A program made the translations under genes and the position numbers. 56,042 nt of DNA. It comes from Polyangiales bacterium. GTDB lineage: Bacteria > Myxococcota_A > Polyangia > Polyangiales > Ga0077539. The stretch covers positions 109,727 to 165,768 of the forward strand of contig JAXLYI010000029.1 of the NCBI GenBank assembly GCA_046351555.1, read 5' to 3'. The stretch's first letter is position 1. Each line of letters opens with the position of its first letter. The notes under the pieces were generated by a model that made no database searches, was not told the origin of the DNA, and saw only the letters and a list, made by a program, of their open reading frames with translations. Shown piece after piece: positions 20,708-21,592 of the stretch.

Positions 20708-20860
20708 ATGAAGAACGAGAAGCAGATCGAGACCGTCGCCGCCGAGACCGCCGCCCCCGCGAGCGTGACGCCCTTCTTCGCCCGCGCCCGCGCGCTCGGC
20801 CTCCCGCGGCTGCAGACGCACGTCAAGGCGGGCCGCAAGCAGGAGGAGTCCGAGAAGTAG
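20708..20860 (+). CDS. small ORF (50 aa) with strong RBS; candidate precursor/partner peptide of the downstream oxygenase
   Basis: AAGGAG sits 7 nt upstream of ATG. High-GC3 codon usage. MKNEKQIETVAAETAAPASVTPFFARARALGLPRLQTHVKAGRKQEESEK, no Cys. Confidence 0.4.
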   Translation: MKNEKQIETVAAETAAPASVTPFFARARALGLPRLQTHVKAGRKQEESEK

Positions 20861-20905
20861 CCCGCTTCCACGCTCGACCCCACCCACGACGTCGACGGTG
20901 CACCG

Positions 20906-21592
20906 ATGAGCGTCCGCATGATCCGCAACGCCCCCGCCAGGGCCCTGGCGGGTGACGCCGTCAAGGTCGTCGACGGGCCCTTCCCGCCGGGGCGACTCGT
21001 GCGGGTGAGCCGCGCGCCGCGGCTGTACGTGATGGACGCGTTCGCCACCGACGACGAGATCGACGCCGTGAAGGCCGTGGGCGACGCGACCGACGAGCTC
21101 GACGCCGTGGGCATCGCGGTCACCCGCGGCGACGCCGGCTACTCCGCCGACCTCCCCGCGCTCGACGACACGCTCGCGTCGCTCGGCCGCCGCGTCGAGT
21201 CGCTCGTCGGGCGCGGCGACCTCCTCGACGACTCGCTGCGCTTCCGGCGCTACGCCGTGGGGGAGTTTCACCGGCGCCACACCGACGCGGTGTGCCCGGT
21301 CGAGGGGCTCCACCTGGTCGTCACCGCGCTGCTGTGCCTCGACGAGCCCGCGGCGGGCGGCGAGACGCTCTTCCCTCACGCTGAGGGCGGCGCTCTCGCC
21401 GTGCGCCACCGCCGCGGGCGCGTGGTCGTCTGGTGCAACTACGCCGCGGACGGGACAGTCGACCGCACCGCGGTGCACGAGGGCCTCCCGGTGCGCGAGG
21501 GGACCAAGGCCACGCTCGGGAAGTTTCTGCACCGCCCCATCGCCGACGCCGGGGTCGACCTCGACGCCGCGCTCGACCTCGCCGCGGCATGA
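20906..21592 (+). CDS. prolyl-4-hydroxylase-like 2OG-Fe(II) oxygenase
   Basis: HxD...H...K spacing typical of P4H-type enzymes: HRRHTD ... RTAVHEGLPVREGTKATLGKF. Also VVTALLCLDEPAAGGETLFP. Confidence 0.7.
   Translation: MSVRMIRNAPARALAGDAVKVVDGPFPPGRLVRVSRAPRLYVMDAFATDDEIDAVKAVGDATDELDAVGIAVTRGDAGYSADLPALDDTLASLGRRVESLVGRGDLLDDSLRFRRYAVGEFHRRHTDAVCPVEGLHLVVTALLCLDEPAAGGETLFPHAEGGALAVRHRRGRVVVWCNYAADGTVDRTAVHEGLPVREGTKATLGKFLHRPIADAGVDLDAALDLAAA

Follow-up and report, generated by a model that had tools for sequence, protein, structure and literature searches.

The window, by which we mean the whole 56 kb stretch of DNA analysed here, has a GC content of 75.5% and comes from a Polyangiales MAG (locus-tag prefix U0324). 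Within it a small ORF, called by the NCBI pipeline as hypothetical protein U0324_34915, lies between an OmpA-family gene and a 2OG/Fe(II) oxygenase gene, and the remains of an ATP-grasp ligase gene lie further upstream (Table 1). The product of the small ORF is MKNEKQIETVAAETAAPASVTPFFARARALGLPRLQTHVKAGRKQEESEK. A preliminary description had pointed to a 50-aa ORF free of Cys, with an AAGGAG ribosome-binding site, 45 nt ahead of a prolyl 4-hydroxylase (P4H)-type oxygenase with an HxD...H...K pattern, and all of these elements are confirmed from the sequence. Neighbouring genes in the window include those for multicopper oxidase, DUF7296, LCCL, OmpA, DUF7305/Stig1 and GH5 proteins; the DUF7305/Stig1-like protein, Cys-rich and secreted, is encoded downstream of the oxygenase (21614-23500). 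A sigma-70 promoter and terminator scan of 19200-21800 was empty except for one chance-level hairpin.

Table 1. Features of the precursor-oxygenase locus, in window coordinates
Feature	Coordinates	Strand	Basis
Direct repeat copy 1: duplicated OmpA upstream region and first ~10 codons	19285..19369 (ATG 19341)	+	Repeat search
Pseudogene remnant of MvdD/MdnC-like ATP-grasp ligase, about codons 222-317	19369..19688	+	tblastn, blastn, alignment
Direct repeat copy 2, before and into intact OmpA-family gene	19726..19810	+	Repeat search
OmpA-family lipoprotein gene	19782..20555	+	PF00691, 65.7 bits
Shine-Dalgarno AAGGAG, 6 nt before precursor ATG	20696..20701	+	Direct sequence reading
Precursor gene, 50 aa plus stop	ATG 20708, stop codon ends 20860	+	GC3 100%, homologues
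Leader motif PFFAR, residues 22-26, microviridin-type ligase-binding motif	20771..20785	+	Close-member alignment, papers
Second leader motif LQTHVKAG (family V[KR]T.[IV][KR]AG)	20810..20833	+	Close-member alignment
Predicted core RKQEESEK	20834..20857	+	Conservation (core role predicted)
Spacer, precursor stop to oxygenase ATG, 45 nt; 3′ 35 nt a ligase relic	20861..20905	+	Alignment with ligase starts of L011 and L003
P4H-like 2OG/Fe(II) oxygenase, 228 aa, predicted tailoring enzyme	20906-21592	+	PF13640 match
Oxygenase key residues	H125 21278-21280; D127 21284-21286; H191 21476-21478; K201 21506-21508	+	Alignment

The small ORF is a real gene. Its GC content at codon positions 1, 2 and 3 is 67, 47 and 100%, the pattern of the real genes that flank it, which places it far beyond a chance ORF, and the 159 nt upstream of its ATG, AAGGAG site included, are identical in a related contig (L011). 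It shares one reading frame with the oxygenase, with a single TAG and 45 nt of high GC3 between them, as would fit the alternative that it is no separate gene, being either a chance ORF of GC-rich DNA or the N-terminus of the oxygenase, split off by an in-frame stop or joined to the rest by readthrough. The homologue set refutes this. In at least 12 independent contigs the homologues end at the same ...[DE]K-stop and a ligase gene follows instead, orthologous oxygenases begin 18 residues further in than that of the window, and the combination of 100% GC3 with 47% GC2 likewise speaks for a gene, so that the alternative retains a vanishingly small probability. The shared frame and the high-GC3 spacer are explained by their origin, since spacer and oxygenase start derive from a ligase start region, as described below.

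Graspetides are ATP-grasp-modified RiPPs whose side chains are joined by omega-ester or omega-amide cross-links, and the product has the make-up of a graspetide precursor, being small, with a conserved leader and a core that contains Asp/Glu and Lys/Thr/Ser. A word-index search with alignment of the small ORFs of relatives gave nine close homologues of the window peptide, and an exhaustive HMMER search of 1.84 billion protein representatives gave 24 cluster representatives of the family, which is therefore rare. Neither Pfam nor NCBIfam has a match for any of the precursors. Across the family these are 39-57 aa long, with a single core each, and follow one layout, in which P[FL]FA[KR] is succeeded by V[KR]T.[IV][KR]AG and, towards the C-terminus, by a short core, R..E..[DE]K. 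Residues P22, F24, A25, T37, A41, G42, R43, K44, Q45, E46 and K50 are invariant in the alignment of close members. The C-terminus reads R-K-Q-E-x-x-[DE]-K in the close set and R..E..[DE]K in most members of the wider family, standing at the very C-terminus or two residues before it throughout. Nearly all wider-family members with a short R..E..DK-type C-terminus retain E46, the acidic residue 49 and K50; the invariance of K44 is confined to the close subfamily.

The first leader motif, PFFAR at residues 22-26, is of the microviridin PFFARFL type. PFFARFL forms the microviridin leader helix, which docks on ATP-grasp ligases and activates them (PMC8939145; PMC12848669). The second motif, V[KR]T.[IV][KR]AG, stands directly before the TxKYPSD core in canonical group-1 precursors, both myxobacterial and other, as represented by P0033 and by the part of the RODEO dataset that was covered. 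P0033, a match of the exhaustive search, is a canonical microviridin precursor (PFFAKYLENQNSLTVKTNLKAG-ATLKYPSDRDEWDN), and the myxobacterial group-1 entries in that part of the dataset have the same layout. Because this leader precedes the TxKYPSD cores in canonical precursors, we place the leader/core border of the window peptide after Gly42, which would leave RKQEESEK as the core. The PSD motif is absent from all nine close members, so they depart from the TxKxPSDx(D/E)(D/E) core, and the core and leader strings of the family had no match in the searched part of the 21,584-peptide RODEO graspetide dataset (PMC13097080). Four longer peptides (P0021, P0026, P0027 and P0034; 104-191 aa) carry three to five repeats of (L)KVKT.VKAG....NHN[EQ](T)(L), in which the leader-like V[KR]T.[IV][KR]AG is reused as the repeat unit; they form an apparently undescribed peptide family.

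The oxygenase scores 30.7 bits against PF13640 (2OG-FeII_Oxy_3), above the gathering cut-off of 27, and its HxD...H...K set is complete, with the iron triad in H125-T-D127 and H191 and the 2OG-binding Lys in K201, all of them invariant across orthologues that are 69-72% identical. Its nearest solved structures are prolyl 4-hydroxylases (E 3e-8); an AlphaFold2 model built from a five-sequence alignment had a mean pLDDT of 37.8 and was unusable. Prolyl hydroxylation of the window peptide seems unlikely, because the predicted core has no conserved Pro, the sole invariant Pro in the close-member alignment being that of the leader motif. Pattern scans of contig collections that hardly contain the family returned only a 40%-identical Bacillota homologue from genomes (L004) and only a 27% match from metagenomes (L005). 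The Bacillota homologue (MAG JAJYVN010000220, L004:833-3286) lies between a gene for a 306-aa repeat protein, which has a weak PqqD-like N-terminus and four 20-aa repeats (TEQSAKQQAEE[GS]TKEQ..), and a RimK-like ATP-grasp gene; the trio could be a remote analogue, of repeat type, of this enzyme pairing.

Intact relatives show what normally stands between the two genes. Their order is precursor(s), an MvdD/MdnC-like ATP-grasp ligase of 317-336 aa, and oxygenase (L001, L002, the P0006/P0012 contigs and L016); in L001, L002 and two P0006 contigs the unit consists of one or two small ORFs, a 317-aa ATP-grasp protein and the oxygenase. Precursor and ligase are also adjacent in L006/7, L008-10, L011, L012 and L015, and in all, most precursors with enough context have an intact ligase next to them (L001, L002, L006-L012, L015 and L016), which that of the window lacks. 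Viewed from the oxygenase, one or more precursor-family ORFs lie upstream of every orthologue with readable context, namely in L001, L002, the two P0006 contigs, L003, L016, the L008-L010 pseudogenes and the window. The small ORF is thus conserved beside orthologous oxygenases, the check that the preliminary description had called for, and the idea of a RiPP-like system put forward there gains support from the precursor family, the leader motif and the ligase-oxygenase gene order of the relatives.

The relatives' ligase matches the MvdD model TIGR04184 with E 1e-54 to 1e-58, at 183-196 bits against an equivalog cut-off of 475, and the MvdC model at 142-154 bits against a cut-off of 425. Its closest structure is MdnC (5IG9, E 2.5e-29), whose leader-binding residues Glu191/Asp192 (PMC12848669) align to E-D in the query. 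With one ligase per cluster, scoring below both equivalog cut-offs, the relatives lack the pair of MvdC and MvdD equivalogs of the microviridins. Since the MvdD match falls far below its cut-off and MdnC is the closest structure, the family is a divergent single-ligase offshoot of the microviridin-type graspetides that has acquired a P4H-like oxygenase and differs in its core, which is new. The class-defining enzyme of the cluster is the ATP-grasp ligase, not the oxygenase.

Some relatives have lost parts of the cluster. Three contigs from different samples (L008:1383-1802, and likewise L009 and L010) have an oxygenase pseudogene after an intact precursor and ligase; it is N-terminally truncated, its first codon corresponding to residue 82, and a stop interrupts the frame within HTDAV*PVDG. 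Because the oxygenase decays there while precursor and ligase stay intact, it is an accessory part of the cluster. This decay is the reciprocal of the ligase decay in the window. Downstream in the same contigs, on the opposite strand, are a Peptidase_C39 ABC exporter and an HlyD-like gene. In L019 about 50 N-terminal codons of the ligase are left, and a sigma-54 activator lies just upstream of the precursor. Two further contigs (L017:4695-5553 and L018:416-1163) have two tandem precursor-family ORFs of 41 and 40 aa with no ATP-grasp gene nearby; a ribosomal protein S14 paralogue follows this pair, and a sigma-54 activator and a Ser/Thr kinase precede it. In L001 (1-2788), the graspetide unit is preceded, at a distance of a few kb, by a T6SS Hcp gene and two LanC-like genes, which may belong to a separate RiPP locus.

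In the window the ligase gene is reduced to its 3′ end. With intact relatives as queries, tblastn aligned residues 227-317 of 317 at 19384-19658, with 70-81% identity and in two frames, so the frameshifted ATP-grasp C-terminal fragment that the preliminary description reported is real; its further suggestion of a degraded larger cluster holds as well, the fragment being a remnant of a ligase that very closely related strains (L011 and L012) keep in full. At the nucleotide level (blastn) the remnant is 92-96% identical to the intact ligases of L011 and L012, 96% in the case of L012. It carries two small insertions relative to the intact genes, near 19381 and 19574, and has a diverged 3′ end; outside these the alignment is almost identical, and because of this the ligase loss is recent. 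Nothing matching the N-terminal part or the first two thirds of the ligase was found by tblastn anywhere in the 56 kb window, nor does the window contain another ligase, an exporter or a peptidase. A 317-aa ORF at 34858-35811(-), equal in length to the ligase, is unrelated to it.

The rearrangement that left this remnant can be read from the flanking sequence. An 85-nt direct repeat with 93% identity between its copies (spacing 441) brackets the remnant, and at 19369/19370 the first copy runs straight into ligase codon ~222. In L012 the 85-nt element and the OmpA start come immediately after a precursor and a full ligase, and L011 has OmpA, precursor P0015 and a full ligase. Measured against the L012-type arrangement, the junctions in the MAG assembly sequence show one deletion of ~1.7 kb. 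Lost with it were ligase codons 1 to ~221, the first precursor and, from its codon 10 onward, one copy of OmpA. Simple assembly collapse was rejected as the cause of the ligase loss: the repeat copies differ at 6/85 positions, and the 19369/19370 junction is not spanned by any long shared sequence that is visible. The OmpA gene is missing from the clusters of L001, L002 and the P0006 loci and is a bystander in the rearranged segment, outside the pathway.

The precursor itself bears the mark of recombination. Window and L011 are identical at 186/186 positions from 159 nt upstream of the ATG through codon 9, and at 95/120 thereafter. From codon 10 the window precursor follows instead the second precursor (pre2) of L003, a noisy long-read contig of a relative with the order OmpA, pre1, ligase, 2.4 kb, pre2, oxygenase. 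Since identity to L011 ends at codon 9 and likeness to pre2 takes over, the alignments show a chimera, with codons 1-9 and the upstream region of pre1 type and codons 10-50 of pre2 type. The 2.4-kb segment between ligase and pre2 in L003, which is absent from the window, holds an opposite-strand paralogue of the DUF7305/Stig1-like protein (L003:3855-5900(-)).

A second, older event lies at the oxygenase start. The 35 nt before its ATG and its first ~8 codons (MSVRMIRN) match the start of the ligase (MSVLLISN) in L011 and L003, the stretch common to both by alignment being CACCCACGACGTCGACGGTGCACCGATGAGCGTCC, and the same ligase-start relic precedes the oxygenase in L003. Given this relic, the adjacency of precursor and oxygenase is a by-product of ligase loss: a second ligase copy was deleted in frame at an earlier stage, which produced both the adjacency and the 18-residue N-terminal extension of the window oxygenase.

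We therefore consider it likely that the small ORF encodes a graspetide precursor, that the oxygenase is a tailoring enzyme of a three-gene cluster, and that the pair in the window is a recently orphaned remnant of that cluster. The preliminary description had presented substrate and oxygenase as a compact, possibly RiPP-like system. The pairing of a RiPP precursor with its oxygenase stands; the compactness does not, as a ligase normally lies between the two genes, the leader carries a ligase-binding motif and the two genes became neighbours through the deletion of a ligase copy. That two genes suffice, with the linear 50-aa peptide hydroxylated by the oxygenase and no cyclase involved, we regard as very unlikely. 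Direct precursor-oxygenase adjacency is also found in L003 and so has been kept for some time, and SmaO, a 2OG oxygenase of group-18 graspetide clusters, does act on a linear precursor (PMC12186529). However, L003 has a full ligase at the same locus, the conserved leader of the peptide is the ligase-docking motif, the PF13640 enzyme CorC is inactive on uncyclised peptide (PMC13097080), and the oxygenase behaves as an accessory in L008-L010, where it is the part that decays.

It is also possible, though unlikely, that the pathway still works, with an ATP-grasp ligase elsewhere in the genome cyclising the peptide in trans and the adjacent oxygenase tailoring it. Wider-family precursors do occur without an adjacent ligase (L017/L018) or beside a ligase fragment only (L019), so a missing local ligase does not by itself imply that function is lost; the ligase of L003 apparently acts for two precursors separated by 2.4 kb, and both genes in the window are intact. 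Against this, the window has no ligase-like sequence besides the remnant, a second copy of so rare a family is improbable a priori, and with a deletion this recent the intactness of precursor and oxygenase says nothing about selection. Under our preferred reading of an orphaned remnant, the copy in the window probably no longer supports cyclisation, barring a ligase that works in trans; most likely this instance is inactive in that step, and the pair alone would yield at best a linear, possibly hydroxylated peptide.

For the intact clusters we propose the following sequence of steps. The ligase would dock on the P[FL]FA[KR] leader helix and activate a core carboxylate with ATP, most likely that of the invariant Glu46. 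Lys50, invariant at the C-terminus, would then supply the amine that closes a small side-chain macrolactam (E-x-x-[DE]-K, i to i+4), with Lys44, invariant in the close subfamily, as the alternative amine donor. Because Glu46, the acidic residue 49 and Lys50 recur in the members with a short C-terminus, and by analogy with corallotide, we infer a Glu46-Lys50 macrolactam (i, i+4) as the simplest prediction. The P4H-like oxygenase would finally hydroxylate a residue of this small ring, the predicted site being the isopeptide Lys, on the model of CorC, or else Asp/Glu49.

A bolder proposal takes the precursor-oxygenase module as the functional unit, with the R..E..[DE]K tail hydroxylated with or without cyclisation, so that strains that lose the ligase, as in the window, switch from a hydroxylated macrolactam to a linear hydroxylated peptide. 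We think this quite improbable; if true, the switch would illustrate how, in nature, a RiPP pathway can change the step that defines its class. In a weaker form, the intact relatives may make a minimal five-residue Glu-Lys macrolactam with a hydroxy-isopeptide, only the second case after corallotide.

These loci define a rare, uncharacterised branch of microviridin-like graspetides with an unusually small core and a P4H-like oxygenase, for which the precedents are one characterised PF13640 case (corallotide, 2026) and the different 2OG oxygenase SmaO of group-18 clusters. The intact relatives L001, L002 and L011/L012 are ready-made constructs for new ring and hydroxylation chemistry. The locus also displays cluster decay, in that close strains differ by duplication, precursor-precursor recombination and deletion, and lineages have lost different parts, the ligase in the window and L019 and the oxygenase in L008-L010. 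For genome mining it carries a caution: what looks like a minimal system, with a precursor beside a tailoring enzyme, can in fact be a relic.

Among known enzymes, prolyl 4-hydroxylases give the best structure matches to the oxygenase (Chlamydomonas 2JIG, Bacillus anthracis 3ITQ/5HV0 and human C-P4H 7ZSC; E 3e-8 to 4e-6). They share the HxD...H...K pattern and a His-to-Lys spacing of 10 residues, although the similarity is weak and their substrate residue, Pro, is not conserved in the predicted core. The SmaO/SmaX system of group 18 (PMC12186529) resembles ours in that a 2OG/Fe(II) oxygenase tailors the precursor of a graspetide cluster. The substrate of SmaO is the linear peptide, in which it beta-hydroxylates the Asp of a DGDG motif (PMC12186529); its partners are an HD-domain enzyme, a GG-motif leader and a PCAT, and the window system has none of these.

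The closest characterised analogue is corallotide (CorB/CorC), a group 15 graspetide from Corallococcus encoded by CorA-D (Carter et al. 2026, PMC13097080). There too a Myxococcota graspetide cluster has a PF13640 2OG/Fe(II) oxygenase gene beside the graspetide synthetase gene, an arrangement found here in L001, L002, the P0006 loci and L016 and represented in the window by the oxygenase and a synthetase remnant. CorC, a PF13640 enzyme, hydroxylates the C-delta of Lys in a Lys-Asp i,i+4 isopeptide ring, acts only after cyclisation and also activates its ligase (PMC13097080). The E-x-x-[DE]-K conserved in our family would suit such a macrolactam and a hydroxylated ring Lys. The systems differ in other respects: CorA is large, with five KIVAD repeats, whereas the precursors here are short and single-cored; CorB is of the TIGR04187 type, unlike the family ligase; and the beta-lactamase partner CorD has no counterpart, no PF00144 gene being present in any family locus examined. 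The first 133 residues of CorC, a portion that does not include the catalytic domain, show no similarity to the window oxygenase (E 6.3), and CorC homologues have been reported only in Corallococcus (PMC13097080).

The microviridins and other group 1 graspetides (MdnA with MdnB/MdnC; MvdC/MvdD; myxobacterial members such as the myxomiditides) are nearest in the leader, which like that of the window peptide contains the helix motif PFFA[RK] and, outside the cyanobacteria, has V[KR]T.[IV][KR]AG after it, as in our family. MvdD/MdnC are also the closest counterparts of the relatives' ligase, in which the Glu191/Asp192 leader-binding pair is retained. In place of the TxKxPSDx(D/E)(D/E) core, however, the family has a C-terminus of 8-9 residues of the form R..E..[DE]K, and its clusters have one ligase instead of two to four and no GNAT, with a P4H-like oxygenase added. 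Myxobacterial ligases of the microviridin type have been documented to form small Lys/Glu lactams (PMC12848669).
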